Assembly (NCBI RefSeq): GCF_000020025.1
Contig: NC_010630.1
Span: forward strand, 91,029 to 123,028
Length of the DNA stretch: 32,000 nucleotides
Reading direction: 5' to 3'
Source: Nostoc punctiforme PCC 73102
GTDB taxonomy: Bacteria; Cyanobacteriota; Cyanobacteriia; Cyanobacteriales; Nostocaceae
Numbering within the stretch: position 1 is the stretch's first letter; each line of letters begins with the position of its first letter. Made by a program: the position numbers and the translations under genes. This document shows positions 1 through 32,000 of the stretch, piece after piece. Under the pieces are notes generated by a model. The model ran no database searches and had not been told where the DNA came from. It worked only from the letters and a program-made list of their open reading frames with translations.

Positions 1-3000
1 TTCCATTCCACCAACAACTGATTTCGCTCGGGCTTACTCAACAGGGGTAACTCTGATAACTGTTGCTGGGGATTAGCCACAATTCCTTCGAGCAGTAATT
101 GAAAATGCCCCGCCATCCGAGTAATCGTAGCAGCATCAAATAAATCGGTGTCGTATTCCCATACCCCTACCAACTCCAGATCTGTTTCTAGTATTGATAA
201 AGTTAAATCAAACTTGGTCGTGTCAGTTTCTACTGTCAACGAGCTCATACTCAACCCAGTCATATCTAAAGCACTCATCGGCACATTTTGCAGGTCGAAC
301 ATCACCTGAAATAGGGGTGTATGGCTTAAAGAACGCTCTGGTTGTAATGCTTCTACCAACTGCTCGAAGGGGATGTCTTGATGTGTATAGGCTTCTAGGG
401 CTACCGATCTTACTCGCGACAGTAATTCGGCAAAACTGGGGTTGCCTGATAAATCGGTTCGCATTACCAGGGTGTTGACGAAAAAGCCAATCAATCCTTC
501 AATTTCCTGGTGCTGGCGGTTAGCTATCGGCGTCCCTACACAAATGTCATCGCTGCTAGTATAGCGGTAGAGCAAGGTATCAAATGCCGCCAATAAGGTC
601 ATGAACAGAGTTACACCTTGCTGCCGACTCAATAACCGCAGTGCTTGCGATAGTTCCACTGGAATTGTGATCTGTTGATGAGATCCTCGGAAAGATTGGA
701 ATGCTGGTCGCGGGCGATCTGTTGGCAGTGCCAATAATGTGGACACCCCAGCTAGTTTTTTTTGCCAGTAATTAAGTTGAGATTCTAGGACTTCACCCTG
801 CAACCACTTGCGCTGCCAAGCGGCAAAATCTACATACTGAACCGATAGTTTTGGTAATGGTGAAGGTTGACCTTGAGAATAAGCATTATACAGTGCGGCT
901 AACTCTCGGACAAACACTCCCATTGACCAACCATCGGAGATGATGTGGTGCATGGTCAGCAACAAGACGTGTTCTGTCTGATGAACTTGCACCAGTTTCG
1001 TCCGCACTAACGGCTCTTGCGCTAGGTCAAAGGGTTGCTGGGCTGAATCGGTTCCTAAGCGAGTCGTTTCTAGTTCTCGTGCTGCTTCTGGTAGAGATTG
1101 TAAGTCGATCACCTCCAGCGTCAAATTGTGGGTGGCAGCGATGACTTGCACTGGAATACCATCTGTGGCGGTAAAGTTGGTGCGTAAGGCTTCGTGGCGA
1201 CGGATGATCTCATTGATACTCTCTTGCAGAGCCACCACATCGAGTTGACCGGCCATACGTAGGAATACCGGAATGTTGTAAAAGGCGCTGTGGGGCTGTA
1301 ATTGGTTTAAAAACCACAATCTCGCTTGAGCAAATGACAAGGGTAGTTCCCCATCTCTGGCAATTGGTCTTAACGGTGGTGCGGTTAATTGCTCATCTGG
1401 CTGGATGGCTAGTTGAATAATTTGTGCTAACTTGGCGACTGTGGGATGTTGAAATAAACTCCTTAATGGGATTTCTAACGAAATGGTGGAACGCACTTGC
1501 GCGATCACTTGGGTTGCTAGTAACGAATTTCCGCCTAATTCAAAGAAATTGTCGTGGATACCTATTTGCTCAACTTTGAGGATGTTTGCCCAGATGAAGG
1601 TTAGCATTTCCTCAATCGGAGTTCGCCCAGCTTCAAACTCTAGCTTCTGGTCGGAACGCATTTCTGGTGCAGGCAGTGCTTTGCGATCAACTTTGCCATT
1701 TGGTGTCAGTGGGAGTGCTTCCAAGATGACGAAGTGTGATGGCACCATATAGGCGGGTAATTGCTCTTGCAAGAATTCACGCAGATGAGCGATCCTTATC
1801 TGTTGCCATCCCGGTTGTGATAGCTTGAACTCAATGGGGTCATGGACTTCCGATGGACTGGCAGGATAGTGCTCAATAGTAGGCACGACATAGGCTACTA
1901 ATTGCCGATTGGCTGACTCACCAACAGAGGTGACTAAGGTTTGCTGGACAGATGGATGCTGACCGAGCACGGACTCGATCTCACCCAGCTCGATGCGAAA
2001 ACCGCGAATCTTTATCTGATGGTCAAGGCGCCCCAGAAACTCAATGTTGCCATTGGGGAGGTAGCGGCCTAAGTCCCCGGTCTTGTAGAGTCGCTCTCCA
2101 GTGACAGGATGGGTGATAAAACTAGTGGCGGTGCGCTCCTCATCCTGCCAGTATCCCCGAGCTAATCCAATGCCACCGATGTAGAGTTCCCCAGGCACCC
2201 ACACTGGACGGGCGTTTAACCGATCATCGAACACAACAAAGGTTTGATTGACCAGTGGCTTACCGTAGGGAATACTGCTCCAGCTTGGGTCTACCTCATC
2301 AATAGGATAGCAGATTGACCAGATGGAGGCTTCGGTTGCTCCTCCCAAACTGACAATCTCCATCTGTGACCACAGTTGTCGCAACTGTGCTGGTAAGCTT
2401 AACGGGAGCCAATCACCGCTCAGGAGAGCTAAGCGCAGACCCTGTGGTGGCGTCATCCGCTCCCTGCTGAGATAGTCAGCTAGCATTTGCCCCAACGCTG
2501 GTACTGTATTCCAGAGGGTGACATGATGTTGTCTCATCAACTCCACCCAATGGGCAGGTTCCTTCACTTCAGTTACCCCCGGCATGACAATCGTGCCTCC
2601 GGCCGCTAACACGCCAAAGATGTCATAGACGGACAGGTCAAAGTTGAGGGCTGAAAGAGCTAACACCCGATCTGCTGGGCTCACACAGAAGCGGGAATTG
2701 ATATCTAGCAGAGTATTGACAGCACTGCAATGGTCGATAGCCACGCCCTTGGGAATCCCGGTAGAGCCAGAAGTGTAGATGACATAAGCCAAATCCTCTG
2801 GTGTCTGCACCCAGGCTAAGGGCAGAGTTGGCTCCTGAGATTGCATCCTCTCATCTATTAGCATCACTGGGATTAACCCAACCCAGGCGCTGGTTGCCAC
2901 TAAGGGATCATCCGTGACAATGACACGGGCTTGACTTTGCTCCAATAGTTGCTGCTGACGTTGGGATGGTAACTGGGGATCTATTGGCACATAGGCGGCT

Positions 3001-18659: not shown

Positions 18660-18848
18660 CTTCGCCAACAGCATCATCCTCTTAAGTTGGCGTAAAAAAA
18701 ACCAAAGTATGTAAAGATAAGTAAATACATAAAATGCATCTACCGAGGTTACTAAGACATGGGCGCTCGTTAAAAAGGGAACTACAGTACAGAACGTGTA
18801 AAATTTGAATCTAATCGTTCTGGTCAAACTTTTGTTACATAGTTATAA

Positions 18849-19058
18849 ATTTTCCCGCCCACTTACTTAGAGCAAGAAGGGTCACTCGCTCTACCACAGA
18901 GCGAATTTGGTTTGGATGTGATTGCTTATATAGGAGCGTTACGATACCAGGAACATAGAAGTGTTCCCCAAATACACACTCACCTTGAATTAAAGGGTAT
19001 ATGTATAAGTCAAAGAACGGTCACGCACCTAATTGACAGATATGACGAATTACTTTCT
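18849..19058 (+). pseudogene. Internal fragment of a transposase gene (same family as 16216..16437), interrupted at 19058 by the Tn7-like element
   Basis: The open frame reads IFPPTYLEQEGSLALPQSEFGLDVIAYIGALRYQEHRSVPQIHTHLELKGICISQRTVTHLIDRYDELLS. It stops making sense exactly at the TGT terminus (19059) and resumes in frame at 31981 (LWLKDH...). There is a stop codon immediately upstream at 18846-18848 and no N-terminal part. Confidence 0.6.
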
Positions 19059-19076
19059 TGTGATTTGAATCATAAA
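19059..19076 (+). repeat. Outer element left terminal repeat
   Basis: TGTGATTTGAATCATAAA. It contains the TTTGAATCATAA motif, which recurs inverted at the other end. Confidence 0.85.
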
Positions 19077-19094
19077 ATAAACTTTTAGCTCACA

Positions 19095-19132
19095 ATATGC
19101 TTCAGAAAGCATTAACCATTTTATGCTTCAAA
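19095..19132. repeat. Two subterminal copies of the end motif in the outer left end
   Basis: ATATGCTTCAGA at 19095-19106 and TTATGCTTCAAA at 19121-19132. Both fit TTATG(A/C)TTCA(A/G)A. They are candidate TnsB-binding sites. Confidence 0.5.
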
Positions 19133-19157
19133 AATCGGCGAAAAAGTAGAAGACATG

Positions 19158-19174
19158 TTCCATGTAATACACAG
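19158..19174 (+). repeat. Sixth copy of the TCCATGTAATACACAG motif, inside the outer element's left end
   Basis: TTCCATGTAATACACAG (19158-19174). Its last 16 nt (TCCATGTAATACACAG, 19159-19174) are identical to 18089-18104. Confidence 0.6.
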
Positions 19175-19258
19175 TTAAGGGGTTAGATTTGGCAAAGCTG
19201 TCATGAAGTACAAACTAAACTGTTTAGTTTAAATATCAAGCATCACCATCTAAAGCCC

Positions 19259-19672
19259 TTAAATAGATACAGTTAAGATTTTAAACAACCAGTCTTCTAG
19301 AGGTACGCCGAATTCTTCTGGAATCTGTTGTTGTATCTTGGTGTATTGAACCTGATTCCAATATGCAGGATTAAATATACTGTGCGGAACTTCTACATCA
19401 ACTAATTGTGGATTTTCCATAACACGACACCACATTCTGGCTCGATAATCAATTGTGAGGTTCCCAAAAGGTAACTCAATCCAATAATGCGGTGACACTT
19501 GACCATGCCCAACCCATCGGAACGAACCGTACCAAATTAGATGTTCAATACCCTCATTAAATAAAATAGTAGAGAGAACTTTGCTATGCCCATCACACTC
19601 CGTTGGGGAATTATTCCAAACACCTAATTCTTCACGTAGCTGCTCAATAAAATCATTATTCATTCCAAGCAT
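19259..19672 (-). CDS. Hypothetical small protein with a papain/transglutaminase-like Cys-His-Asp pattern
   Basis: 137-aa ORF with GGAG 9 nt upstream of the ATG. The pattern TECDGHSKVLSTIL...GIEH...SPHYWIEL...LTIDY fits the order and spacing of the C..., HxWxE and D motifs of transglutaminase-like cysteine peptidase folds. This rests on the motifs alone. Confidence 0.55.
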   Translation of the reverse strand: MLGMNNDFIEQLREELGVWNNSPTECDGHSKVLSTILFNEGIEHLIWYGSFRWVGHGQVSPHYWIELPFGNLTIDYRARMWCRVMENPQLVDVEVPHSIFNPAYWNQVQYTKIQQQIPEEFGVPLEDWLFKILTVSI

Positions 19673-19784
19673 ATTTATTCTCCAATAGTACTTTCAATTT
19701 GCGAACTGTATTGATTGTCATATCAGCTTGTGTTGCTGTTTGACGCAATAATAATTTCTCATCAAGTGCTGCAATTACTCCTTG

Positions 19785-20753
19785 TTAAGCACGTTCTTCT
19801 TCAATTTCTTCAATTAACTGCTCAATCCAACTAGGTTTACCTGCTAGAATATCTACTTCAAACTCTGATAACTGCTTTTTTTTCATCCGCCGCAAATCTC
19901 GCAATGCAGCAGTCGCATCTTCCGGGTTGTCAAATTTGTAATATTCAGTCAAACTCCCAATAGAGCAATTGTAGTCAGCATATCTATATTTAAAATATTT
20001 CTCTACATTCCCTCGATGCGACCAGTGTCCTAAAACTTTGATTGAAACATGAGAAAAATGTTTGACCAAATCAGTTTGAACTTCAGCTACGCGTGCTTGT
20101 ATTTCCCGCCTAGTCACACCAATTTTATAAAATGTTTCTTTATCAGTATCAATTTGAAGGTAATACAGAGTATTCGATAAAATTTTCTTTAATTCGGCGC
20201 GATATATTTGCAGATCCCAAAGACATTCATGAAAATTTGATGCATCATCAAGATAAGCAACTTGAACTTTTTTCTCTAACTGCTGCAACTTCTCCCACAA
20301 TATTGATTCTTGCACTTGGTTGAACAGCATTAACGATAATGCACCAACAGGTATCTTACCTAGCTTGGTAAACTGGTATTCTCCATAGAGACGGTATTCA
20401 TTGTACTCTAACAATTTTTCTTTAATAAAAATTGAGTTAATTTTACTCTCATAAATACCTTTGTTCTTCCATCCGTATCGATTCCAAAGGGTCTTGATCT
20501 GTTGGAGTTCTTTACCTGTTAGACATATATTGAAGTTATTGTATAAAGGTAAAGTAGGAATTTCACGTTCACTGCGATTAGCTACTTCTCTGCAAGTAAA
20601 GTTAGTGTGTGCGAAGTGGTGTTCTTTACGATTTCCCTTTTTCGCCGTCAACTCACCACCACAGTAGGGACACTTTAACTGAGTTCTCCCTCGTAGAACA
20701 TCTTCAATCGGTACTAAGATCAAATCTAGGTCAACACCATACCTGAGCCACAT
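19785..20753 (-). CDS. Two-domain protein: CoiA-like Zn-ribbon N-terminus plus a T5orf172 (GIY-YIG-superfamily-like) C-terminal domain
   Basis: 322-aa ORF. The N-terminus LKCPYCGGELTAKKGNRKEHHFAH matches the CoiA-family signature C-x2-C...K.G....HFAH. The C-terminus FYKIGVTRREIQARVAEVQ...LGHW...GNVEKYFKYRY...EYYKF resembles the T5orf172/MUG113 pattern. Confidence 0.7.
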   Translation of the reverse strand: MWLRYGVDLDLILVPIEDVLRGRTQLKCPYCGGELTAKKGNRKEHHFAHTNFTCREVANRSEREIPTLPLYNNFNICLTGKELQQIKTLWNRYGWKNKGIYESKINSIFIKEKLLEYNEYRLYGEYQFTKLGKIPVGALSLMLFNQVQESILWEKLQQLEKKVQVAYLDDASNFHECLWDLQIYRAELKKILSNTLYYLQIDTDKETFYKIGVTRREIQARVAEVQTDLVKHFSHVSIKVLGHWSHRGNVEKYFKYRYADYNCSIGSLTEYYKFDNPEDATAALRDLRRMKKKQLSEFEVDILAGKPSWIEQLIEEIEEERA

Positions 20754-21065
20754 TTGGGAATACCTTTTATTTGATACACCAGGAAAGGTAGGCTTGAAAA
20801 GCGCGTAATGATATTTTACTGTATCAAAAAAAGCTGCTGTAAAATAAATAATTCTTAAGGAATTTATCTTAAAAAGAAATACGTTTAAATTCCCAAATTA
20901 ACATTGTCCAGTCATAACCATCAGAATCAACTACACTAATGTACCATCTAAAAGAGGCTGTATACCTCTTTAATGCCATTGACTTAACTAACATATTCTC
21001 TTCATCAGTAGCGTCGGAGCTATGACCTGCTTGAATTAAATCACCAACTCTAGTAATTTCATATA

Positions 21066-21344
21066 TTAATCAAGTGTTGAATAATCAGAAAGTTCTGTTG
21101 TTTCTAACTCACTTAAAAAGCCAGTTAATGCAAATGGACATTTACAACTAAGCTCTTTTTCTAAAAAATCAGCATTTAAGTGATATTCAAAACACACAGT
21201 ATCAAAAATATCCTCAGTAGTTAATTCTAGATTTTCATCTAATTCCACTATTCGTGCTTCTATTAAGTAAATTAGCTCTTTACTAGAGAAGTAAGTTTTG
21301 ATTGTAGAAGTAATTATTAGATGATTTATTTTAGTAACTATCAT
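21066..21344 (-). CDS. Hypothetical acidic small protein
   Basis: 92-aa ORF co-directional with tnsC, 31 nt downstream of the 138-aa ORF. I recognise no motif. It may be part of a longer frameshifted gene (see findings). Confidence 0.4.
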   Translation of the reverse strand: MIVTKINHLIITSTIKTYFSSKELIYLIEARIVELDENLELTTEDIFDTVCFEYHLNADFLEKELSCKCPFALTGFLSELETTELSDYSTLD

Positions 21345-21375
21345 TTTAACTCTCCGATGATTTTAAACATAATCT

Positions 21376-21792
21376 TCAAATTGGTAAATGCTGTTGTAAG
21401 ATTGGGTGCAAAGAAGCAGCAATTGCCTCAAACTTATCACCATCTGGATAGGGACGAAGAATTTCCTCACCGTCTTCGTTCAACCACTCTTGTCGTATTG
21501 GAGTGTACTCAAGCGATAGAATTGCAGTTCTCCACCAGCCAGATAATGCTAAATGTTCCCCAGACCAAAATAGCCGGAAATCAACCTTCTTATTTCGATA
21601 AACTTCACTAATAGGATTAGAATAAGGACGGTTTTTAGGATCAAAAGTCTCAGTAAAATAGCCTTGAAAATCAATTACTAAAAAATCTTTTTTAATTTCT
21701 GCTGTTAATTTAAAACGAGAGTGTAGATAATGAGCAGATAAAATTTTAGCGGCTGCTAATTCAAATTCTATAGGTAAAGTAGATAAACTCAT
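21376..21792 (-). CDS. Hypothetical protein in the position usually occupied by tniQ
   Basis: 138-aa ORF 90 nt downstream of tnsC on the same strand. It has no Cys-rich TniQ-like zinc motif and no family I recognise. Confidence 0.55.
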   Translation of the reverse strand: MSLSTLPIEFELAAAKILSAHYLHSRFKLTAEIKKDFLVIDFQGYFTETFDPKNRPYSNPISEVYRNKKVDFRLFWSGEHLALSGWWRTAILSLEYTPIRQEWLNEDGEEILRPYPDGDKFEAIAASLHPILQQHLPI

Positions 21793-21882
21793 TAATTAAT
21801 AATTTCCTTGAATACCGATGCGAACATTATTGAAAAATTGATACCCTTGATAAAAACTGTTTACTACTGAATTTTTTGATGT

Positions 21883-23355
21883 TCACTCAAGTCCAACAGT
21901 GTCTCGTTTGGGTTTGCGTTGCCCAACACGTTGGGAAGACTTTTTAGGCATTTTCTGTTTAGTTGCAGCTTCATCATCAATTGTCTTCTGTTCTATTATG
22001 GGACTGACAGTAATATTTGTTTCTAGTGGTGTCTCACTAATTGAAGAATCAGTTTGTTTTGTCTTCTTGCGAGTTTGTTTCTTCTTGGGGACTGGCTCTA
22101 TAGAAGTTTTGCCTGGTGTAGTAGAAGGCGTTTCATCTATCGTAGAACTGACGGGCTTTTTACGAGTCCGTTTCGCTTGAGATGGTGGTTTGTCAGATTT
22201 CGGAGGCGATGCTACCACATCTGCTGCGCCCTTTGATAAATCCACCGCAGTTTTTGGTACAGATGTAGAACCCATTCCCATCTGTAGCAAATGCCACAAA
22301 TGTTCACGGCGACTTTCCATATAAGAGAGTTTTTGTTCTCCCTCAGTGGTATCCAATGCCATACGTTCACATTGGGCTAGTGTTAGGGTATGTTCATGCA
22401 ATCTTTCTAAACTAAGAGTGTCGTGGCCATCATGTGCTACCGCTGCCACAGCCCGTATAAGCCAGTCTTTGAGTACCCCAACACAACCAATGCAACGTTC
22501 ATAGAAATAAAGCCAATGCTGCATTAGCTCTCTTACATCAACATTCATCGGTACTTGCATCAGGAGTGCCAATAATGCGGCTTGAAAATCCTGACGGTCA
22601 AGTTCATTTTGATACAGATAACGCGGAAAATGGATATCTAGTCCCCGCCGGGATGCTTGACCACTTAAATTGCGGAAATTTAGCAGTTCGTAAGTCCCAA
22701 TGAGAATGTGTAGCACACCCGTAACGTTGGTCATAGACTTAATCCAGTCCAACTGGTCTAAAAGCTTACCAGCACTTGCACCAGTCCCAATCTTCATTAA
22801 GTGCTGTGCTTCGTCCAAAATCACCGCCCGCACTCCGCGTTTGGTCATCGCTTCTTCTAATGCGTGGCGCAGTTCGGGAGAATCATTAAACTGCGCTGTT
22901 TTAGTCCGGGAGCGTCCTTTCTTCTCCCAAGTCTGCTCCGCATCAATATCTATCAGCATCCGCCGCTCATAGAATGGTTCTCCCAAAAGCTTTAGCGCAG
23001 TGCGGTAATAATCTGCGCGATTAAACACCCCACCGTCAGATGGTCGTGTTTCTAACAGCAATAACGGCATCAGGGGCTGACTGCCGTTACGATAGCTTAA
23101 GGAATTGGATACACCTGGTAACTGTTCGGGTACATTCTCATTTAACCGTTTAGCAATCTGCCGAATCATCGTTGTTTTACCCACACCGCTTGGCCCATAA
23201 ACCAACACATGAGCAAATCCGGCGGGTTCTCGAATCGCACGCATCAACAACATATCTACCCGTGCTAACTGGGGATGTAAAACTGCATACTCCTTAAACT
23301 GAGTTAGTTTGAGGTGCATTTGGTCGTTTTGATTAAGGCTCTCCAAATTGTCCAT
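21883..23355 (-). CDS. tnsC: TnsC/TniB-like AAA+ ATPase with a long low-complexity C-terminal extension
   Basis: 490-aa ORF. Walker A is VYGPSGVGKTT and Walker B is VILDEAQHL. The start overlaps the tnsAB stop (TAATG). The core is co-linear with the inner element's TnsC (…LDEAQHL…IGTYELLN…CVG(V/L)LK(D/N)WL…). Residues ~360-475 are K/P/T/S-rich. The terminal motif is RVGQRKPKRDTVG. Confidence 0.9.
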   Translation of the reverse strand: MDNLESLNQNDQMHLKLTQFKEYAVLHPQLARVDMLLMRAIREPAGFAHVLVYGPSGVGKTTMIRQIAKRLNENVPEQLPGVSNSLSYRNGSQPLMPLLLLETRPSDGGVFNRADYYRTALKLLGEPFYERRMLIDIDAEQTWEKKGRSRTKTAQFNDSPELRHALEEAMTKRGVRAVILDEAQHLMKIGTGASAGKLLDQLDWIKSMTNVTGVLHILIGTYELLNFRNLSGQASRRGLDIHFPRYLYQNELDRQDFQAALLALLMQVPMNVDVRELMQHWLYFYERCIGCVGVLKDWLIRAVAAVAHDGHDTLSLERLHEHTLTLAQCERMALDTTEGEQKLSYMESRREHLWHLLQMGMGSTSVPKTAVDLSKGAADVVASPPKSDKPPSQAKRTRKKPVSSTIDETPSTTPGKTSIEPVPKKKQTRKKTKQTDSSISETPLETNITVSPIIEQKTIDDEAATKQKMPKKSSQRVGQRKPKRDTVGLE

Positions 23356-26072
23356 TAACGGTATTCCCCTAGTATCGGCAGTCGTGTGAGATCCAACAGT
23401 TCAATGTTGTTTTGCAGTGCTGGCAATTGTTCGTCATCTTGACTGTGTGCTTCTATCTCCGGCTCAAGAGTGCTGACTGGGGGAAACTGGGGTACACCTT
23501 CCTTATTGAGTGTTAAATTCTCCAGTACCCCAACAGCTTCCAAATCCCGTAATCGTTGCATGAGTAAGATTTCATGTTCTTGCACCGCCGCGATGAAGTC
23601 TGCAAGGCGTTTGGCAGAGATATTTGTACTCACAGCATTACGCTTATCTTGCTGTCTGATTTCTTGGGCAGCTAATAGCACTTCTTTCTCCGTGCGTCCG
23701 GCAAAGGTGCTGTAATACTGGGAGATACATTTGACCCATCTTCCCTCTAAGTACGCATAAGCTACACCCATATCAAAAGGGTCATAGCGTACACTGACTT
23801 TGGTCTTTTCGACAACCGGATTGCGGAAAGCATCGTTCCAGTAATAAAGATAATTGACTTTAATTCCCTGTCCCGGCTGAACTTTAGCGTTGCCTTTGGG
23901 TGTACTAGGGCGTGTTGCCATGAGAAAGTCTTCGTTGTATGCAATACGTCGGTGTTCCCTCTCCCCTGTGGCAGCCATTGCGTCAGTATAAACTTGTAAT
24001 GGTGTCTCACCCAAGGAATCATGTACGCTTGTGTCATAAATGGTGTATGCCCACTCACTCAGGTAGGTATGTAAAGAAGCTAATGTCCAAACGGCAAGTT
24101 GTTTGGGGTCAACAGAAGAAGTGAGTTGACGCGGTTGTTTACTGGCTTGGGTGTTGCCCAGTAAGTTAAAGATAAATTCAGTATTAGTTGTTCCGAATAA
24201 TCGCTCAACTACTGAGCCAAAACGAGGTTTTGCACCAGGACGAGTCTTTTTGATGCAGTGGTAGCGTGCTAATAAGGTATCAAAGTAAACGCTATGAAAT
24301 TCCTTACCGCCATCTACAACTACAGATTGGGGAAAACGACCAAAACGCTGGACGCACAACCGTAGTGCCATCATGCAAGACCTGTAACTGGGTGGGTCAA
24401 AGGTGAGATAAACTGCTAAGATGCGTCGGGAGTAGGCATCAATCAGTAATGTCAGCCAAGGTCGTCCTAAGTTCCGACCAGTTACTTGGGAGCGTAATTC
24501 GATATCGAGTTGGGTGTGGTCAAGATGACAGATAGCAAAAGGTCTGTCTCCATGCCGGGGTGTAGTTCTAGCTAGTTCTAAGACAATCGGTTCTGTTGCG
24601 TATGCGGCTTTTGCTCCCTGACGTTTTAAAGTCTGCTCATGGATTGGACGCTTTTTTAGCCGAGTATAAAATGTGCGCTGACTCAGTGGAGGGATGTTGG
24701 CTGTACAGCAGGCTCTTGTATATGCCCGATAAACGGAAGCGGCTGGAGCTTGCCTTGGTGTCTCGAAGTGTTCTGTAATAAATTTATCTAGTAAAACGCT
24801 GGTATCTGTTGGTGCTTTGGATAGGCGATTTCCTCTATTATTTGTACGTGGGAGCAAACCAACATAACCGCAACCAAAAGTGGCTTCCGCTTCCCGAAAC
24901 TGTTTTACCCATCGAGATAAGGTGCTTTGAGGTATGTCCTTCCCTATATCTGTGTGATGCTGGAAATATGCTTGTACTAAATGAAATCTGCGATTGGCTC
25001 TTTGTAGATCCGCAGGCGAGGCGGCATCCATCAATTCACGCACTCCCTCATTGATGGTTGTTTGTTTTTCTGAGGTGAGAATATTGATAGTGCTACTGTC
25101 GAATAATTGCAGAAAAAATGCTGTGGGCAATTGCATTGGTTGCCCGACTGCGGGTAGCAGTGTGGTTGTAGTCTCGCCCAAGTTAACTAAAGTCCAAAGT
25201 TGTGAGTCCCAGACTAATAAGGTATTAGGCAAGAGTGTTGTGGGTGAGGTGATTTTTCGATGATCCCCAGTTGTCCCTATGGCTAAATATGTATGAGCAG
25301 TATGAGTTTGCTCATCTGCCCATAGCTGAACTCGCCAATGTTCCACTAGGGGAACTGCATACAAGTCCACGTAGAGTTGCTCTGTGGCAATCATGGCGTA
25401 AATATCGTTAGCACGCACTCCGGGAATGGTTGCAAGTGTGGCGGCTATAGTTATTCCTGGACTGGCTTTAACTGAAGACAGTATTTGTTCTGTAATGGAA
25501 AGGGGGACATTGGCGGTGAACCTAAAGTAGTCTTCTAAAAACATTAGGTTCTGGGTGAATATGGGATTTAGTTCGGTATCGGTGCGAACATGATATTTGA
25601 GTCCATAAGATTCGGCGTAAGCTTCTCCTGGTGGGCAATGCCAATGACCAGTTTCAGTTTTTTGGTAGCGTGAAGGGTATTTTTGGGCTAGTCGTTTTAA
25701 TTCGGTTTCGGTTTTCCATTCTTCCCAAGCTGCACCTGTCGTCCGCAGTACGAAGAAGTCTGGGGTATGGTAATGACCTATATTTCGTCCGTTTTGGTTT
25801 TGGTACTGAATTTTAAATGGAGGTGGTTGGTCGTAGAACTCTAACACCTGTGGGTCGTGTTCCATTTGGTAAATCGCCCATAGTTCTACTGTGTGGCTCT
25901 CAAATTGAATGGTTTGACCCATTTTGCGGCTAGGGTAAACTCCACTGACGTTCTTAGCGCGTCCTTGTACTCTGCGAGAAGGTGGGGCAGCGCGAATTGC
26001 GGCGATTATTAAGAGTATTTGTGCCGTTAGTTGCTGTTGCTTACACCAATGGTCAAATTCATCGTCTGTCAT
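23355..26072 (-). CDS. tnsB: TnsA-TnsB fusion transposase: N-terminal TnsA-like endonuclease module plus a DDE/rve TnsB-type transposase
   Basis: 905-aa ORF. The N-terminus QFESHTVEL...DPQVLEFYDQPPPFKIQY...YHTPDFFVLR...WEEWKTETEL gives E58/D105/K120. This pattern and spacing resemble Tn7 TnsA E63/D114/K132. The DDE core is HLDHTQLD, LLIDAYSRRILA and VVDGGKEFHS. There is no separate tnsA gene in the element. Confidence 0.85.
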   Translation of the reverse strand: MTDDEFDHWCKQQQLTAQILLIIAAIRAAPPSRRVQGRAKNVSGVYPSRKMGQTIQFESHTVELWAIYQMEHDPQVLEFYDQPPPFKIQYQNQNGRNIGHYHTPDFFVLRTTGAAWEEWKTETELKRLAQKYPSRYQKTETGHWHCPPGEAYAESYGLKYHVRTDTELNPIFTQNLMFLEDYFRFTANVPLSITEQILSSVKASPGITIAATLATIPGVRANDIYAMIATEQLYVDLYAVPLVEHWRVQLWADEQTHTAHTYLAIGTTGDHRKITSPTTLLPNTLLVWDSQLWTLVNLGETTTTLLPAVGQPMQLPTAFFLQLFDSSTINILTSEKQTTINEGVRELMDAASPADLQRANRRFHLVQAYFQHHTDIGKDIPQSTLSRWVKQFREAEATFGCGYVGLLPRTNNRGNRLSKAPTDTSVLLDKFITEHFETPRQAPAASVYRAYTRACCTANIPPLSQRTFYTRLKKRPIHEQTLKRQGAKAAYATEPIVLELARTTPRHGDRPFAICHLDHTQLDIELRSQVTGRNLGRPWLTLLIDAYSRRILAVYLTFDPPSYRSCMMALRLCVQRFGRFPQSVVVDGGKEFHSVYFDTLLARYHCIKKTRPGAKPRFGSVVERLFGTTNTEFIFNLLGNTQASKQPRQLTSSVDPKQLAVWTLASLHTYLSEWAYTIYDTSVHDSLGETPLQVYTDAMAATGEREHRRIAYNEDFLMATRPSTPKGNAKVQPGQGIKVNYLYYWNDAFRNPVVEKTKVSVRYDPFDMGVAYAYLEGRWVKCISQYYSTFAGRTEKEVLLAAQEIRQQDKRNAVSTNISAKRLADFIAAVQEHEILLMQRLRDLEAVGVLENLTLNKEGVPQFPPVSTLEPEIEAHSQDDEQLPALQNNIELLDLTRLPILGEYR

Positions 26073-26149
26073 GAGAATGCTTCTCTTTGCCAGGAGGCGG
26101 TTTTAGGCTTTCAGTACGCAATACCAAACTACAGAGGCATGGTTTTAAG

Positions 26150-26311
26150 TGAAGCATATCTTGGAATTTTGAACCATATTTTGAATTGAAAGTTTATAAG
26201 TGGGCAATTTTTTCAAAGATTTTTTGTGCAAGTTTCATTCAATTGTGTTTTTTCAACTCATTTTTTAATTATGCTTCAGAATTTTAACTCTCTCTCATGA
26301 TTTGATTCAAA
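26150..26311. repeat. Subterminal end-motif copies of the outer element's right end, between the tnsAB start and the nested insertion
   Basis: In the same orientation as the terminal site: TTATGCTTCAGA (26269-26280) and TTTGATTCAAA (26301-26311). In the opposite orientation: TGAAGCATAT (26150-26159) and TTTGAACCATA (26168-26178). Confidence 0.5.
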
Positions 26312-26357
26312 GTTTTATGTTGGGATTGGTGAGAAAGTCCGAAATTGCGTTAACTCT

Positions 26358-26408
26358 TGTCACTTAAAGGATATTGTGGCCGTTTTTAAACCATAAAGTG
26401 GCCGCAGT
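26358..26408 (+). repeat. Inner element terminal IR, tnsAB-proximal (right-end type)
   Basis: It contains two GTGGCCG-centred sub-repeats (ATTGTGGCCGTTTTT and AAAGTGGCCGCAGT), which are candidate TnsB-binding sites. Confidence 0.9.
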
Positions 26409-26518
26409 CATCTGAACTGGTAAGTATAAATATTTATATCAATAAAAGACTGTTTAACTGGCGAAAGCCTAGATTTGTGGTAAGAGCTTGTTGCGGCTTT
26501 AAAAGCTTGGGGGCCAAT

Positions 26519-29128
26519 ATGTTGAGCGACCAAGAGTTTAATGATTGGTGTCGCGGCGTAAATTTACCACAAGAGGCTAGGCAATTAATTTCCCAAATCC
26601 GTGCCTCTGAACCAATTCGGCGAGTCAAAAGCAGTGGTATAAATGTCCGGGGCGACTACGCCAGTCGCAAAATGGGAAAAACTATTCAATTTGAGTCCCA
26701 TAAAATTGAATTGCCAGGTGTAGAGGAGTACGAAGAAGACGCAGATGTACTCGAATACTACGACCAAGCATATCAAATTACTCTAGAATTCCCCTCAAGC
26801 AGTGGGGAAATAATCAAAGCTTCGCATATACCAGACTTTTTCGTAATTCGGAAGCGGAGTGCAGGTTTTGAAGAGTGGAAACCAGAATCAAGATTAGAAA
26901 AATTAGCAGCTAAACAATCACAACGTTATATGCGTTCAGAAGATGGGCAGTGGTTAAACCTGCCAGCAGTTGCTTATGCAGAAAAATTAGGACTGTATTA
27001 CCGAATTCGGTTAGATACAGAAATTGATTGGATTAAATACAGAAATCGACTATTTCTCAAAGCCTATACTACTGAAGATTACCAAATTGACCCAGAAATA
27101 GCTGAAAATTTGGTGAAGTTAATTAGCTTAAATCCGGGCATAAGTTATTGGGAAATGATTCATACTCAACAGAGCAATCCTGATGACATAAATGCTTTAA
27201 TAGCTACAAAAAAAATTTACATTAATTTGAGTGCCGCACCCTTAGCAGAGCCAGAAAAAGTACAGCTTTTCCGTGACCAAGAAATCGCGGTAGCTTATGT
27301 ACAAATGATAAAATCGCAACCGAATAATGGAACGATTCTGAATATTTTAGATGTTAAACCCAATCAACTGGAACCTAAAACTCATAATCAAGTAAAAATG
27401 TCTCCAAAAGCAATGGAGCGTTTTTTGAGAGCTAGTCCTGAAGACTTGGCAGAAGCTAACCGAAGATATGAAGTAATTGAACCTTATCTTAATGACAGTT
27501 ATAGAGATAAAGAAACTGTTCCACAACGTACTATTCGCAGATGGAAGGCTAAGTTTATAGCAGCACAAAAGGCGTACAAATGTGGTTATATTGGGCTGCT
27601 AAATAACTCTAATGCTAGAGGCAATCGCTTACCCAGAATTTCTCAATCGTCTCAAGATTTCATTGACAAAATAATTGAAGAATATTATGAAACTTTTCAA
27701 CAAAGAAGCAAACTAGCTGTTTATGGAATTCTAGCAAGAGAATGGGAGAAAGCAGGTCTAACAGATAAGCTGCCTAGCTACGCTACATTTTGTTCTAGAA
27801 TTCAACATCGTTCTGGTTATAGGCAAACAAAAAAACGTAAGGGAAACAGAGCAGCTTATCAACAATCTTTATTGTATTGGGAGTTGAAATTAACCACACC
27901 ATGTCATGGCGACCGTCCATTTGAGATAGCACACATTGACCATACGCAACTGGATATTGAGTTAGTATGCTCCCGAACAGGTTATCTTCTTGGTAGACCT
28001 TGGGCAACTCTGTTAATCGATGCTTACAGCCGACGTATTCTCGCAGTTTACCTAACTTTTGACGAGCCAAGCTACCGTAGTTGCATGATGGTATTAAGAA
28101 TCTGCGTACAGCGATTTGAGAAATTACCAGAGACAATAGTTGTTGACGGTGGGACAGAATTTAGTAGTACATACTTTGAGACCTTGTTAGCGGCTTTTGA
28201 ATGTACCAAAAAGCAGCGACCAGCTGCGAAAGCCAGATTTGGTTCAATTATTGAACGTATTTTTGGAACTACAAATACAGAGTTTTTTTATAATCTTAGA
28301 GGCAACACTCAAATTACTAAGAATGTCCGCCAAGTCACGAAATCAAATAATCCCAAAAATCAAGCTGTTTGGACACTAGATCAACTCTACGAAAACTTTT
28401 GTTCATATTGTTACGAATTCTATGATTGCAGAGAACATCCAACATTAGGACAAAGCCCACGTCAAACTTTTATGTCAGGGCTAAATTCAAGTGGTTATCG
28501 CCCTCAGAAACAGATTATTTATGATGATAATTTTAAGATTTTTACCTTACCTTCTACACCTAAAGGAACTGCAAAAGTTCAACCAAGTAGAGGCGTGAAA
28601 ATTAATTATCTCTACTATTGGTCAATTGATGATTCGTTCATAAGACCAGAAATTGAAGGAACTAATGTACCTATTCGTTACGACCCTTTTGATATGGGGA
28701 CTGCTTATGCTTACGTTAAGGGACGTTGGATACGCTGTATTTCTGAACATTACAAATCCTTCCAAAATCGTTCCGAAAAAGAAGTGAACATAGCCAGCAC
28801 ACAATTACGTCGAAAAAGGCAGAAACACGCTCAAAGAATTACTCTATCTGCCCAAGAAAAAGCTACATATTTAGAAGGAACTGAAGCCCAAGAAACTTTG
28901 TTATTACAACGCTTACATGATTTAGCACAACAAGATATTTGGGTTTTAATTGAAAAAAGCTCAGTTATTGAAAGTAAATTAAGTAAACACAATTATTCAG
29001 CTAATGTTCAAGATGTAGATAAAAATATTTTGGCAGGTTCAGAAAGCATTAAAAAGCCAAAATCATCAGCAAAAAAATTAATAGATTTAACCAAAATAGA
29101 AGCTTACAATACAGAGGAGCTATGGTAA
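26519..29128 (+). CDS. tnsB: TnsA-TnsB fusion transposase of the inner element
   Basis: The ORF track starts at GTG 26477. ATG 26519 gives MLSDQEFNDWC..., which is co-linear with the outer protein's MTDDEFDHWC..., so I prefer it (869 aa). TnsA-like module: QFESHKIEL...DADVLEYYDQ...HIPDFFVIR...FEEWKPESRL (E59/D106/K121). DDE core: HIDHTQLD, LLIDAYSRRILA, VVDGGTEFSS. By eye, long identical runs are shared with the outer protein across the catalytic core. Confidence 0.88.
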   Translation: MLSDQEFNDWCRGVNLPQEARQLISQIRASEPIRRVKSSGINVRGDYASRKMGKTIQFESHKIELPGVEEYEEDADVLEYYDQAYQITLEFPSSSGEIIKASHIPDFFVIRKRSAGFEEWKPESRLEKLAAKQSQRYMRSEDGQWLNLPAVAYAEKLGLYYRIRLDTEIDWIKYRNRLFLKAYTTEDYQIDPEIAENLVKLISLNPGISYWEMIHTQQSNPDDINALIATKKIYINLSAAPLAEPEKVQLFRDQEIAVAYVQMIKSQPNNGTILNILDVKPNQLEPKTHNQVKMSPKAMERFLRASPEDLAEANRRYEVIEPYLNDSYRDKETVPQRTIRRWKAKFIAAQKAYKCGYIGLLNNSNARGNRLPRISQSSQDFIDKIIEEYYETFQQRSKLAVYGILAREWEKAGLTDKLPSYATFCSRIQHRSGYRQTKKRKGNRAAYQQSLLYWELKLTTPCHGDRPFEIAHIDHTQLDIELVCSRTGYLLGRPWATLLIDAYSRRILAVYLTFDEPSYRSCMMVLRICVQRFEKLPETIVVDGGTEFSSTYFETLLAAFECTKKQRPAAKARFGSIIERIFGTTNTEFFYNLRGNTQITKNVRQVTKSNNPKNQAVWTLDQLYENFCSYCYEFYDCREHPTLGQSPRQTFMSGLNSSGYRPQKQIIYDDNFKIFTLPSTPKGTAKVQPSRGVKINYLYYWSIDDSFIRPEIEGTNVPIRYDPFDMGTAYAYVKGRWIRCISEHYKSFQNRSEKEVNIASTQLRRKRQKHAQRITLSAQEKATYLEGTEAQETLLLQRLHDLAQQDIWVLIEKSSVIESKLSKHNYSANVQDVDKNILAGSESIKKPKSSAKKLIDLTKIEAYNTEELW

Positions 29129-30261
29129 AAATTCAGTCGCACTCTTTTCCAGAAGAACTTCTCTTACAGCCGAACGAAATTAAAACTGATTATTTCAAAA
29201 GTATCACTATTCCACATCAAAGGCTCAAACAAGCCTTAGATACTTTATTAATTAATATTCTGGAGCCAGCTGACACTTTAGTATTTTTAGTTTTTGGTGT
29301 GACTGGTGTAGGAAAAACAACCTTACGCTTGCGTCTGGAAAATCTGCTAAATTACGAATTTCTCCCCTCATTACGCCAAAATCCTGGTCAAATTGCTGTT
29401 GCTGGTATTGAAGCTATTCCAACAGAACAAGGAAAGTTTAGCTATAAAGATTATTACACTCGCGCCCTAGAATCCCTTCAGGAAGTTTTGATTGAATACA
29501 AAATTGATTATGAAATTCCTCACGGTGAGGTAAAGGATTTGGGGTTGCTAAATCGGGCTTACCGCCAAGATTCGCCCGCATTACGCCGAGCAATGGAAAA
29601 AGCATTTCGTTATCGTCAGGTAAAAGCTTTTACTGTAGACGAGGCACAGCATTTATTTATGATGGCAGGCGGACACCAGATGTTACAGCAAATGAACTGG
29701 ATTAAGTCTATTGCTAATCTTACTGGTACAGTACATATTTTATTTGGAACTTATGAACTGCTTAACTGTCCTACCTTGAATGGGCAAATAGGGCGGCGTA
29801 GCGAAGATATTCACCTGTTACCTTACCAAGCTGATAACCCAGAAGATATTGCTGAATTTATTAGAGTAATTAGAACTTTTCAACGCCACATTCCGCTTGT
29901 ACAAGAACCAAAATTAGAACAACACTATGAGTATCTTTTTTCTGGCTCAGTTGGTTGTGTGGGGCTATTGAAGAATTGGTTAACTCGTTCTTTGAGAGTT
30001 GCCTATTCTGAAGAAGCTCGGACTCTTAATAGCAAACATCTTAAATTAGGTGCTTTTTCTGCATCTCGTATCAACAAAATTAAGGAAGAAGCACAACAGG
30101 GATTTAAACGCTTTCAAGAAGAATCCAGTTTTTTTGAGCGGCAATATTCAACAGAACATGGAATAAAAATGCCAGCCAAAAATTCCCTACTCAAAAAAGG
30201 TCGTGTTGGACAAAGAAAACCTAAAAGAGATGATGTAGGGGTAAATTCAGATGATGACTAA
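29122..30261 (+). CDS. tnsC: TnsC/TniB-like AAA+ ATPase
   Basis: 379-aa ORF. Walker A is VFGVTGVGKTT and Walker B is FTVDEAQHL. There is an ATGGTAA overlap with the tnsAB stop. The C-terminal motif RVGQRKPKRDDVG is shared with the outer TnsC. Confidence 0.9.
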   Translation: MVKIQSHSFPEELLLQPNEIKTDYFKSITIPHQRLKQALDTLLINILEPADTLVFLVFGVTGVGKTTLRLRLENLLNYEFLPSLRQNPGQIAVAGIEAIPTEQGKFSYKDYYTRALESLQEVLIEYKIDYEIPHGEVKDLGLLNRAYRQDSPALRRAMEKAFRYRQVKAFTVDEAQHLFMMAGGHQMLQQMNWIKSIANLTGTVHILFGTYELLNCPTLNGQIGRRSEDIHLLPYQADNPEDIAEFIRVIRTFQRHIPLVQEPKLEQHYEYLFSGSVGCVGLLKNWLTRSLRVAYSEEARTLNSKHLKLGAFSASRINKIKEEAQQGFKRFQEESSFFERQYSTEHGIKMPAKNSLLKKGRVGQRKPKRDDVGVNSDDD

Positions 30262-31837
30262 CATGGCGGTTAACGATGAATTGTGGCTCAAAGACCCAGA
30301 ATTTACTCCCAGTCCTAGCCGGTTGTTTCATCTGGAACCGATTGGACTTGGTACTTGTTATGTTGAAAGTCTGACTAGCTATGTTGCTCGTCTAGCCGCA
30401 GCTCATAGCGTATTGCCTGGAACTTTATTGGCTAGAGAGATAAAACCAATAGTTGGGCATAACCATACTACCAATCCCTTGAATTCTAAAAGTATCGTAA
30501 GTTTGTATGGACAAGCTTCTGTAAAAGCTTTAAACGGAACACAAATTGGAGCTAAACAACTGGTTTTTGCTCTAGAAATATTGACAAAACGTACTGACTT
30601 ACAGTTTTTGACAATGCTACCTTGGGCAAAAGTCTTCCCAGTTTTGGGATTGCTCAAGCATTCTCATGCTTGGTGTCCTTATTGCTATCAAGACTGGTTA
30701 AATAATCAACAAGTCATTTATTCACCTCTGCTGTGGGCTTTGAAACCAGCTAACATTTGTCCCATCCATTATCGATTTTTAGAATCAAAATGTCCTCACT
30801 GTGACCTTGAATTTTTACACCTGTGGCATAACTCACGACCTGGATTTTGTCTGAAATGTGGTGGTTGGTTGGGGATGAACTATGAAGTATCTTTGCCAGA
30901 TAAGAGATTGTTCGAGGAGATACCCAATTTACAGCAAGAGATTTGGATAGTTAAGACTTTAGGAGATTTAATTGCTCAAGCTCCTGAATTTCCTTGTCCA
31001 CCTCCAAGAGAGACTATTAAAACAATCCTAGAAGCTTACGTCTATCAATATACTCAAGGTAATGTTTCCGCTTTTGGTCGTTGGCTTGGGTTATCGAGAT
31101 ATGAAATTCTACATTGGTATTCAGGTGTAGCCATCCCAAATTTAGATAAACTTTTGAAAATCTGCTACGCCTTATCAACTAATCTTGTCGATTTTCTTCA
31201 ACTTAAAATACTACCTCTTACTCTTAAGCAGCTAGTTTCTCTACCTGCTCCTAAACAGAAAAAATTATCATCACAGTCTGCTTTAGTTACTTCAAATAGT
31301 AGTCCTAAGTGCGAACGAGTTATTCAGGCGATGCAACTAGCTCAAGAAGAAGAACCACCTCCTTCTTTAACTCAATTAGCTGTTCGTTTAGGATTCAAAA
31401 CTCCTAGTAGTTTAACTGCTTGCTCAAAATCTTTATCAGCATCTTTGGCTACTAGATATAGTGAATATCAACAGCAGCTAAGATTTTTACACATCAGAGA
31501 CATACTTGAATTAGCTTTGTTTAGCGACGAGTATCCACCACCTTCTCTAAGAAAAATAGCTAAGAGAACTGGTATTGGTTTGGCTACTTTCTACCACTAT
31601 TGCCCTATTGTGTGCCATGCTATTTCTTTACGCTATAAAGATTACCGCAAATTCGTCCATAAACTAGCTATTGAGCAAGGCTGTCGAGAAGTACGCCAAC
31701 TCGCTTCAGTACTTCATGCACAAGGCATTACCCCTACTGCTAAAAATCTCAGAAAATTTATGCCTCATCCCTCTTTGCTGTGGCAGGCTGAGGTAATTGA
31801 TGTTTTAAGGCAGATAAGACTGGATCTTTCACAGTAA
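30251..31837 (+). CDS. tniQ: Large TniQ/TnsD-like target-selector protein
   Basis: 528-aa ORF overlapping the tnsC end by 11 nt. TniQ-type N-terminus: LFHLEPIGLGTCYVESLTSYVARLAAAHSV. Cys-rich zinc module: WCPYCYQDW...CPIHYRFL...CPHCDLEF...CLKCGGW. C-terminal HTH-like segments include an internal repeat: PPPSLTQLAVRLGF and PPPSLRKIAKRTGI. Confidence 0.85.
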   Translation: MMTNMAVNDELWLKDPEFTPSPSRLFHLEPIGLGTCYVESLTSYVARLAAAHSVLPGTLLAREIKPIVGHNHTTNPLNSKSIVSLYGQASVKALNGTQIGAKQLVFALEILTKRTDLQFLTMLPWAKVFPVLGLLKHSHAWCPYCYQDWLNNQQVIYSPLLWALKPANICPIHYRFLESKCPHCDLEFLHLWHNSRPGFCLKCGGWLGMNYEVSLPDKRLFEEIPNLQQEIWIVKTLGDLIAQAPEFPCPPPRETIKTILEAYVYQYTQGNVSAFGRWLGLSRYEILHWYSGVAIPNLDKLLKICYALSTNLVDFLQLKILPLTLKQLVSLPAPKQKKLSSQSALVTSNSSPKCERVIQAMQLAQEEEPPPSLTQLAVRLGFKTPSSLTACSKSLSASLATRYSEYQQQLRFLHIRDILELALFSDEYPPPSLRKIAKRTGIGLATFYHYCPIVCHAISLRYKDYRKFVHKLAIEQGCREVRQLASVLHAQGITPTAKNLRKFMPHPSLLWQAEVIDVLRQIRLDLSQ

Positions 31838-31871
31838 ATCTTATTTATTCGCCTTTCTCTAAGGTTTTACT

Positions 31872-31922
31872 ACTGCGGCCACTTTATGCTTTAAAAACGG
31901 CCACAATATCCTTTAAGTGACA
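31872..31922 (-). repeat. Inner element terminal IR, tniQ-proximal (left-end type)
   Basis: Its reverse complement equals 26358-26408 except for one base. Confidence 0.9.
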
Positions 31923-31934
31923 ACTCTTCTCGAT

Positions 31935-31975
31935 TTATGATTCAAAATTTTTCCCACATTATGATTCAAAGCACA
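31935..31975 (-). repeat. Terminal 41 bp of the outer element's right end, now separated from the rest of that end by the nested element
   Basis: TTATGATTCAAA occurs at 31935-31946 and 31959-31970 (24-bp period). It ends ...GCACA at 31975, the inverted counterpart of 19059-19076. Confidence 0.85.
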
Positions 31976-31980
31976 TTTCT

Positions 31981-32000
31981 TTATGGCTAAAAGACCATAA
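31981..32000 (+). pseudogene. Continuation of the transposase fragment interrupted at 19058
   Basis: After the TTTCT duplication the frame continues TTA TGG CTA AAA GAC CAT (LWLKDH) with no stop up to the window edge. Confidence 0.5.

Follow-up and report, generated by a model that had tools for sequence, protein, structure and literature searches.

A Cargo-less Tn7-like Transposon within the End of Another, and Evidence That Its Family Homes to Transposon Ends

A 32,000-nucleotide stretch of Nostoc punctiforme PCC 73102 (contig NC_010630.1, positions 91,029 to 123,028; hereafter the window) contains two nested Tn7-like transposons. The inner element, which encodes TnsAB, TnsC, and TniQ only, is inserted within the right end of the outer element, close to its terminus. 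A comparison of its flanks with those of other copies and miniature derivatives indicates that the inner family very probably homes to the ends of other Tn7-like transposons. With moderate confidence, we favor a more specific reading, in which the element inserts preferentially into the terminal repeat modules of other transposons belonging to its own clade and TniQ reads the host terminal site on the tniQ-proximal side of the insertion.

Two Nested Transposons and an Empty Site

The inner element and its target consist of the following features.

26358-31922, plus strand: inner element, a cargo-less Tn7-like transposon (tnsAB-tnsC-tniQ) of 5,565 bp, delimited by inverted repeats and the ACTCT duplication
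26353-26357: ACTCT target-site duplication, left copy (empty site seen in L015)
31923-31927: ACTCT target-site duplication, right copy
26358-26408, plus strand: inner right (tnsAB-proximal) terminal module, with two predicted TnsB-type sites (..ATATTGTGGCC, ..CCATAAAGTGGCC)
31872-31922, minus strand: inner left (tniQ-proximal) terminal module
26519-29128, plus strand: inner tnsAB fusion gene, 869 aa from ATG or 883 aa from the GTG at 26477
29122-30261, plus strand: inner tnsC, 379 aa, AAA+ (Pfam AAA_22, 54 bits; TniB, 29.6 bits)
30251-31837, plus strand: inner tniQ, TnsD-like, 528 aa, with a TniQ zinc-ribbon domain and two tandem C-terminal helix-turn-helix (HTH)-like modules
31928-31975, plus strand: outer terminal module, severed from the rest of the right end, with predicted TnsB-type sites at 31935-31946 and 31959-31970
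26073-26357, plus strand: outer right end, interior portion, carrying sites at 26269-26280 and 26300-26311 as well as sites of opposite orientation near 26170-26190

The insertion is best seen by comparison with L015 (1502-7997), an uninterrupted outer-type element on Trichormus variabilis plasmid A that is 88-90% identical to the outer element and has its own duplication, CTTGC. Its sequence runs continuously across the inner-element site (...GCGTTAACTCTTTCTCGATTTATGG...), and this uninterrupted site, together with the ACTCT duplication, identifies the inner element as a simple insertion. The insertion point lies 48 bp from the outer right terminus (53 bp with the duplication), between the second and third TnsB-type sites. 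The initial annotation had placed the inner element within the repeat array of the outer right end, 48 bp from the terminus, and the duplication and the empty site in L015 confirm this. It had also recognized the element, its ACTCT duplication, and its inverted repeats, all of which are borne out, with its right boundary one base off.

The coding content of the inner element is limited to three proteins, a TnsA-TnsB fusion, TnsC, and a TniQ-family protein. Its terminal inverted repeats are complementary at 51/52 nt (98%; TGTCACTTAAAGGATATTGTGGCCGTTTTTAAA(C/G)CATAAAGTGGCCGCAGT). The fusion of TnsA to TnsB, with TnsC and TniQ downstream, is the arrangement of Tn7-like TnsAB-fusion elements, and the ends have the TGT...ACA termini, repeated transposase-binding-type sites, and 5-bp duplication of Tn7-like transposons. 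In Pfam searches of the inner TnsAB, Mu-transpos_C scores above its cutoff and rve scores 28.8 bits, under the cutoff of 32.6; a TnsA_N domain is detected on a product identical to the inner TnsAB. Alignment of the inner TnsAB with the outer TnsAB begins at residue 1-2 and spans the Pfam-confirmed TnsA_N of the latter. In dozens of Nostoc read sets, an identical inner element is found as a stand-alone contig of ~5.5 kb. These contigs break exactly at its termini, which indicates that the element is multicopy, with several flanks per genome. An exact look-up of the inner TnsAB product returned 14 contigs, all starting at the terminus, and no flanks were recovered from them. The inner element is best explained as an intact, recently active, insertion sequence (IS)-like (cargo-less, multicopy) member of the cyanobacterial TnsAB-fusion Tn7-like clade.

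The two nested transposons are related to each other. Over 850 residues, the N-terminal TnsA part included, their TnsAB proteins share 43% identity, and their 53-bp terminal modules align at 32-34/53 positions (z ~3.9) with the same two-site layout, TGT..ATA.TGTGG...TTTT.AA.CATAAA. The description of their TnsB-binding repeats as unrelated in the initial annotation is therefore wrong, because the modules align with a shared two-site architecture. The end of the inner perfect repeat corresponds, in the aligned outer module, to the position at which the inner element is inserted. Two consequences suggested earlier, a putative absence of target immunity between the two elements and a putative crippling of the outer element by the insertion, are plausible.

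The remaining features of the outer element are as follows.

19059-31975, minus strand: outer element, a TnsAB-fusion Tn7-like transposon of 7.35 kb without the inner element, delimited by its termini, the TTTCT duplication, and intact plasmid relatives
19059-19135, plus strand: outer left end, a terminal site followed by two oppositely oriented sites
23355-26072, minus strand: outer tnsAB fusion gene, 905 aa (Pfam TnsA_N, rve, Mu-transpos_C)
21883-23355, minus strand: outer tnsC, 490 aa (Pfam AAA_22, TniB)

The TTTCT duplication flanks the outer element at 19054-19058 and 31976-31980. The outer termini follow the pattern TGTG(A/C)TTTGAATCATAA, the two ends reading TGTGATTTGAATCATAA and TGTGCTTTGAATCATAA. 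The end motif TTATGMTTCARA, allowing ≤1 mismatch, has 8 matches against 1.22 expected, a number reached in 0/100 shuffles, and these matches cluster at both outer ends. Among the copies listed in the initial annotation, those at 26269-26280, 31935-31946, and 31959-31970 are exact, and the one given as 26301-26311 is degenerate (2 mismatches at 26300-26311).

The outer-type element lacks a recognizable TniQ. Downstream of tnsC it has only a conserved 138-aa open reading frame (ORF; 21376-21792, minus strand), which is maintained in Trichormus plasmid copies (L015 2960-3376) and has no match in Pfam or NCBIfam; it may be an unrecognized target selector or an accessory protein. The cargo includes a 322-aa ORF (19785-20753, minus strand) with CoiA_N-like and T5orf172/MUG113 (GIY-YIG-related) domains. 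The Trichormus copies differ in this region, and only 70% of the outer element aligns. The outer element itself sits in an IS-type transposase reading frame (18840-19058 and 31976-32000) that continues at L001 5563-6152, where a faint MULE match is found. The nesting thus has three levels: the inner element within the outer element within an IS.

A Recurrent Offset in the Flanks of Other Copies

Flanks of inner-type copies and derivatives were collected from GTDB genomes, Joint Genome Institute (JGI) metagenomes, PLSDB plasmids, and the contigs of TniQ homologues. For scoring, seven termini served as references, each established independently from its inverted repeats and duplications. A match was counted at ≤6 mismatches in 20, located at 50-53 bp with the right polarity, and the window's own flanks were left out. 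By this rule, a Tn7-like terminus lies 50-53 bp away and points toward the element in 10 of the 27 flanks scored for inner-type copies and their miniature derivatives. Under the null, the rate per flank is 0.00155, corresponding to a binomial probability of ~7e-22 for matches that are not fully independent. The host ends belong to at least six sequence types, one of which is a left end. Several of these types are also the ends of autonomous elements, namely the outer type (L015), the L017-L019 type, the type of a sister clade designated clade 2 (L039-L044), and the X type (L062). The copies and offsets are listed below.

Window copy: full-length, 53 bp, outer right end
L010: full-length, 97% TniQ, 52 bp, host end TGTGATTTGAACGATAA...
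L032: full-length, 63% TniQ, 51 bp
L022: nonautonomous end, 53 bp
L023: nonautonomous miniature, 53 and 52 bp, on both sides
L025: nonautonomous end, 53 bp
L026: plasmid miniature, 53 bp
L027: plasmid miniature, on both sides, one being an Aulosira outer-type right end whose junction falls on the very base used in the window
L061: plasmid miniature, 50 bp

The junction varies within one host type, lying at 50 bp in L061 and at 53 bp in L026; these two copies are therefore separate events. The initial annotation had proposed homing to transposon ends from the window alone, and the recurrence of the fixed offset across independent copies, derivatives, and host-end types supports it. The comparison of flanks that it had called for gave end-type flanks at the same offset in several copies, with other copies lying elsewhere; neither the lack of a common flank nor insertion at a host gene or tRNA is the rule.

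Nonautonomous inner-type miniatures of 192-250 bp are scattered over Nostocales plasmids and metagenomes (L023 1367-1558; L026 4001-4212; L027 4001-4202; L028 4001-4249; L061 6327-6526). Some of them carry an extra short repeat (GATAACTTCGTTAAGC) where a GCGATCGC site would be.

Potential targets are common on plasmids. Among PLSDB plasmids there are ~31 outer-type right ends, of which ~29 are uninterrupted and one has an inner-type miniature at the site (L027); another end carries an unrelated miniature element a few bp from the site (L051). More than 20 Nostocales plasmids have ~255-bp copies of the outer-type right end without an annotated gene. These copies probably represent solo ends or miniatures of the outer-type element, and they make up a plentiful reservoir of potential targets. 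A scan of viral contigs with the degenerate end pattern gave no match. More distant plasmid relatives (L017-L020 and L014; TniQ identity 33-36%), whose own ends read TGTCGGTGGAAGGATAATATTGCC..., are not visibly within other Tn7-like ends and served as bona fide terminus templates.

Proposed Reading of the Host Terminus

The geometry of relatives indicates the side on which the target is likely recognized. In the A. franciscana element at L038 (2247-7354, duplication CCTTC), which targets CRISPR arrays, positions +14..50 beyond the tnsD-proximal end are occupied by the next CRISPR repeat, and the published motif of CRISPR-array-targeting elements is 40-50 bp away from the left end (PMC11837452). 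A relative that targets tRNA-Ala and has two TniQs (L046-L049) shows the 3' end of the tRNA 31-32 bp beyond its tniQ-proximal terminus, with the T-loop at +43..53. The initial annotation had predicted a recognition region at 26295-26335 because it applied the rule of Tn7, in which the tnsA-proximal end lies next to the TnsD site. This is the wrong side, as the attachment sequence in the TnsAB-fusion clade lies beyond the tniQ-proximal end. The flanks of full-length inner-type copies follow the same geometry: a host terminus is found at 51-53 bp in 3/8 left flanks and in 0/5 right flanks, and that of L030 lies at 32 bp, also on the tniQ-proximal side, such that host termini of full-length copies occur only beyond this end. 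The determinant that these insertions share is likely the terminal site of the host, which is 33-53 bp away from the junction. For the window, the putative recognition site is likely TTATGATTCAAA at 31959-31970, +37..48 from the inner left end.

From the insertion, its duplication, and its empty site, the recurrence of the offset over at least six host-end types, and the geometry of relatives, we infer that TniQ is the reader and that the terminal site is the sequence read. In the proposed mechanism, the 528-aa TnsD-like TniQ would bind a host terminal TnsB-type site, the core of which in the window would be TTATGATTCAAA (31959-31970, +37 to +48). TnsC would assemble beside the bound TniQ, and TnsAB would integrate the element ~45 bp deeper in the host end, where the two-site module has its inner edge (50-53 bp from the terminus). 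The reaction would leave a 5-bp duplication, with the tniQ-proximal (left) end toward the host terminus. As a consequence, the host end would be split, with 48 bp of it left outside; because of this, the inner element would become cargo if the host were still mobile.

The inner TniQ has the properties expected of such a reader. It matches PF06527 at 58.6 bits and a solved TnsD (PDB 8v32_J/9bw1, 462 aa) with E=1e-79 over residues 9-321 and 412-512. Alignment shows a tandem pair of HTH-like modules ('PPPSL..A.RLG') in it and also in the tRNA-Ala-type TnsD; the TniQ of clade 2 (464-465 aa) has one, and array-targeting TnsD lacks the last one. The TnsD match and the presence of both HTH modules indicate that the inner TniQ has the full DNA-binding equipment of a sequence-reading TnsD.

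Clade 2 provides a separate view of the target. Its elements are cargo-less and ~5.7 kb long, and their TniQ is 46-49% identical to the inner TniQ (BLASTP). Some occupy the corresponding position of outer-family right ends, in one orientation or the other (L043, L044), and some lie 29-33 bp inside other termini (L041, L042). A position weight matrix (PWM) with a 12-nt core was built from host termini, and this core occurs at +36..38 of one flank in 4/5 clade-2 elements (p 0.0001-0.025 each). One of the clade-2 elements, L039, has a clean TTAAG duplication at the 3' end of a P450 gene, with the PWM core present. As L039 sits in a non-transposon site, recognition seems to depend on a motif at a fixed distance and not on a transposon end as such. 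L043 (1-78) and L044 (8493-8570) carry the same clade-2 element (identical TniQ) in the same outer-family right-end interior of two genomes. The two are joined to it by opposite element ends with a 2-bp shift, the junction following ...ACTCT in one and ...ACTCTCC in the other, so orientation is not fixed in clade 2. By eye, the target core resembles the tRNA T-loop and the CRISPR motif (GATTCAAAGC vs GATTCGAACC, 8/10; GATTCAAA vs GATGGAAA, 6/8), which is a suggestion only of an evolutionary link.

The main rival, which we consider unlikely, is that the transposase is the reader. The inner TnsAB, or the TnsB of the resident element bound to its own end, would mark the host module and draw integration to its inner edge, as in the targeting of inverted repeats by IS30 and in reverse of Tn7 target immunity. 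Insertion does occur exactly at the inner edge of the two-site module, which is the extent of the inner perfect inverted repeat, and the two offset classes, 29-33 bp (past site 1) and 50-53 bp (past site 2), track the site periodicity. The target core also resembles the inner element's own internal site, TTATGGTTTAAA, which counts against recognition by TniQ. However, target-bound TnsB inhibits insertion in the Tn7-like systems that have been studied (PMC11014353), and L039 used a non-transposon site with the motif alone. The homology to TnsD and the match in distance make reading by TniQ the simpler account.

TniQ might instead bind on the tnsAB-proximal side (~26295-26335), as TnsD does beside Tn7R, with the outer-type right end as a specific attachment site. 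In the window, L032, L035, and the clade-2 copy L043, the right flank is in every case the interior of an outer-family right end, with the junction at one aligned position, and the outer-family right end is a favored target. These flanks are homologous by descent, and both sides of the site are conserved by this homology, so they cannot separate the two sides. Other host ends do discriminate. They are of unrelated types, and the host end of L010 is the left end of an outer-family element, with an interior unrelated to 26295-26335 and only the terminal ~20 bp in common with the window target. An uninterrupted copy of this host end is present at L035 3805, ~430 bp from a right-end interior. The relatives read the tniQ-proximal side, and the window's right flank has no motif in the required orientation (PWM, p=0.43). 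Binding on the tnsAB-proximal side is thus quite improbable.

A number of observations weigh against recognition of host termini by TniQ. About half of the inner-type flanks show neither a host terminus nor a significant PWM motif. L013 lies at the 3' end of a gene, with an oppositely oriented mimic of the motif, and L024 has neither a host terminus nor a motif in its flanks. L011 and L016 are located in repeat-rich sequence (ATACTTATAACTTCGTTAAGG) that is 50 bp outside a third element, whose right terminus points away from them. The flank matches share host types, with L023, L026, and L061 on one and the window and L027 on another. Occupancy of outer-type ends in PLSDB plasmids is low, and the T-loop and CRISPR-motif sites score poorly with the PWM (-9.2 and -5.8 bits). 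There is also an offset class of 29-33 bp (L030, L041, L042). Clean duplications are found only in the window and L039, and L030, L032, L035, L041-L044, and L061 have none. The flanks of L061 (6278-6660 vs L062 5501-5680) are collinear with an uninterrupted end, with zero bases duplicated, which is unexpected for TnsAB-type integration. L023 (1314-1610) and L027 (3948-4255) carry inward-pointing host modules of 52-53 bp on both sides, those of L027 coming from two different families. Because host termini lie on both sides, neither copy arose from a single insertion.

Recombination may account for several of these cases. The flanks of L030, L032, L035, and L041-L044 are of the proper kinds and come from different host elements, which is most simply explained by recombination among copies. 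The double termini of L023 and L027 possibly arose by recombination between the 52-bp terminal repeats of two copies, and the inverted-repeat flanks of L011 could have the same origin. For L011, inversion between inverted copies was considered and rejected by reasoning, as it swaps flanks without a like-with-like outcome. The L061 miniature lies between host right-end positions 50 and 51, and the third and fourth host sites continue beyond it.

A broader role for recombination, in which the 50-53 bp host modules were captured or carried along in a few ancestral events and then spread by mobilization, is very doubtful. The missing duplications, the miniatures with host termini on both sides, and the single host-end type of L023, L026, and L061 would fit such an origin. 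The window is nonetheless a clean, duplicated insertion for which uninterrupted relatives of the host element exist, the same offset is found in at least six unrelated host-end types, and the junctions of L026 (53 bp) and L061 (50 bp) differ within one type. Incidental, nonspecific integration, with copies surviving because mobile-element DNA is neutral, would accommodate copies in unrelated places (L013, L024) and the ~29 unoccupied outer-type right ends of plasmids, but is highly implausible, as neutral tolerance cannot yield a fixed offset of 50-53 bp with a fixed polarity.

Neighboring Loci and Comparison with Known Systems

Two large biosynthetic genes lie at 4826-15789 of the window on the minus strand. 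One encodes a 1,801-aa protein of the nonribosomal peptide synthetase (NRPS) type (adenylation-type AMP-binding/carrier protein/condensation/AMP-binding) and the other a 1,853-aa type I polyketide synthase (PKS) module (KS-AT-DH-KR-ACP). In an IS at 16527-18036, the transposase is divided between DUF772 and DDE_Tnp_1_6 ORFs; the element is probably of the IS5/IS1182 type and either frameshifted or subject to programmed frameshifting. At L035, an inner-type copy with tnsC deleted is immediately followed, past its left end, by a cyclic-oligonucleotide-based antiphage signaling system (CBASS) operon (8254-12805; DncV-like nucleotidyltransferase, E1/E2, JAB, SAVED effector). In the 77%-TniQ relative at L037 (53-4366), tnsAB is truncated by a trio of tyrosine recombinase genes that looks like a mobile element of the recombinase-in-trio type. 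The X-type autonomous element of Tolypothrix PCC 7601 (L062 4352-5506) lies within tnsB of another Tn7-like element with a TnsD-family protein, an ATPase, and a Mu-transposase C-terminal domain. The X-type cyanobacterial end has a 48-nt terminal module for which Bacillus cereus-group plasmids carry matches of 81-83% identity, pointing to a very widely conserved end architecture; Bacillus TniQ homologues are also among the TniQ search matches.

Insertion into other mobile elements is known from two systems that resemble the inner element in behavior only. The Tn5053/Tn402 'res hunters' (TniABQR) are Tn7-related through TniA/B/Q and insert preferentially into functional sites of other mobile elements, using transposons as vehicles. 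They have no TnsA, use the resolvase TniR, and target resolvase-bound res/par sites; in contrast, the inner element has a TnsA domain, has no resolvase gene, and takes a transposon end as its target. IS30 inserts beside the terminal inverted repeats of related elements and targets its own repeats; it does so by means of an unrelated single-protein DDE transposase and works without a dedicated target selector or AAA+ adaptor.

Canonical Tn7 (TnsABC+D at attTn7) shares with the inner element TnsA/B/C and a TniQ-family selector, TGT/ACA termini, multiple TnsB sites, a 5-bp duplication, and a fixed offset from the bound sequence. The two differ in polarity, as the tnsA-proximal right end of Tn7 faces the TnsD site whereas the tniQ-proximal end does so in the clade of the inner element. 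They also differ in the effect of transposon ends in the target, which confer immunity for Tn7, whereas related ends are the target of the inner element.

Within the TnsAB-fusion clade, tRNA-targeting TnsD elements, the second-closest described system, include the type I-B2 PmcCAST and the type I-D McCAST (Hsieh & Peters, PMC9881144). Like the inner element, they have a homologous TnsD, a 5-bp duplication, and an attachment sequence by the tniQ-proximal end, which was verified on L046. The inner TniQ has the TniQ domain and C-terminal HTH region of a TnsD; unlike the tRNA-targeting elements, the inner element has no second TniQ, no CRISPR-Cas, and no cargo. A tRNA attachment site was rejected for it, as tRNA scans found no tRNA gene in the window or in inner-type and clade-2 loci and, as a positive control, showed tRNA-Ala in L046-L049.

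Of the systems described so far, the nearest is that of the minimal cyanobacterial Tn7-like transposons that target CRISPR arrays (Chacon Machado & Peters, Mob DNA 2025, PMC11837452). Like the inner element, the array-targeters are cargo-less, multicopy, IS-like members of the TnsAB-fusion clade with a tnsAB-tnsC-tnsD gene set, and their end architecture is very similar (TGTCACTTGAACCATA...). At 5,565 bp and three genes, the inner element has the minimal, cargo-less, multicopy form of this family. Their selector, in parallel with that proposed here, uses a short motif ~40-50 bp beyond the tnsD-proximal end, in a repeated noncoding feature of chromosomes and plasmids. Array-targeting TnsD lacks the C-terminal HTH region of ~60 aa and is 50-90% identical to AfTnsD (PMC11837452). 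In contrast, the inner TniQ is 528 aa long, keeps its C-terminal HTH modules, and has ~37% identity to A. franciscana TnsD, and its flanks are the end of the outer element, not CRISPR repeats.

Our full-text searches and the main Tn7 surveys, within the literature searched, gave no account of a Tn7-like element whose target is the end of another Tn7-like transposon. The inner family may represent a TnsD-type lineage that switched from host landmarks (tRNA genes, CRISPR repeats) to the terminal site of its rivals, a conjecture on which our confidence is evenly divided. It would then be a hyperparasitic 'end-hunter' family that rides on and disables its hosts, is unblocked by host target immunity, and seeds nested composite ends and miniatures across Nostocales chromosomes and plasmids. 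If this is true, a selector can evolve to read a rival's transposase-binding site. The multicopy status of a cargo-less Tn7-like element would also be explained, as targets that are repeated and on plasmids would offer a safe site and a vehicle through one pathway. The nested elements, with transposases 43% identical and homologous end modules, make heterologous target immunity directly testable, and the system would offer engineering a compact TnsABC+D with a short, portable recognition sequence. Beside the tRNA and CRISPR-repeat sites already described for the TnsD selectors of this clade, transposon ends would, if the reading holds, constitute a third natural class of attachment site.

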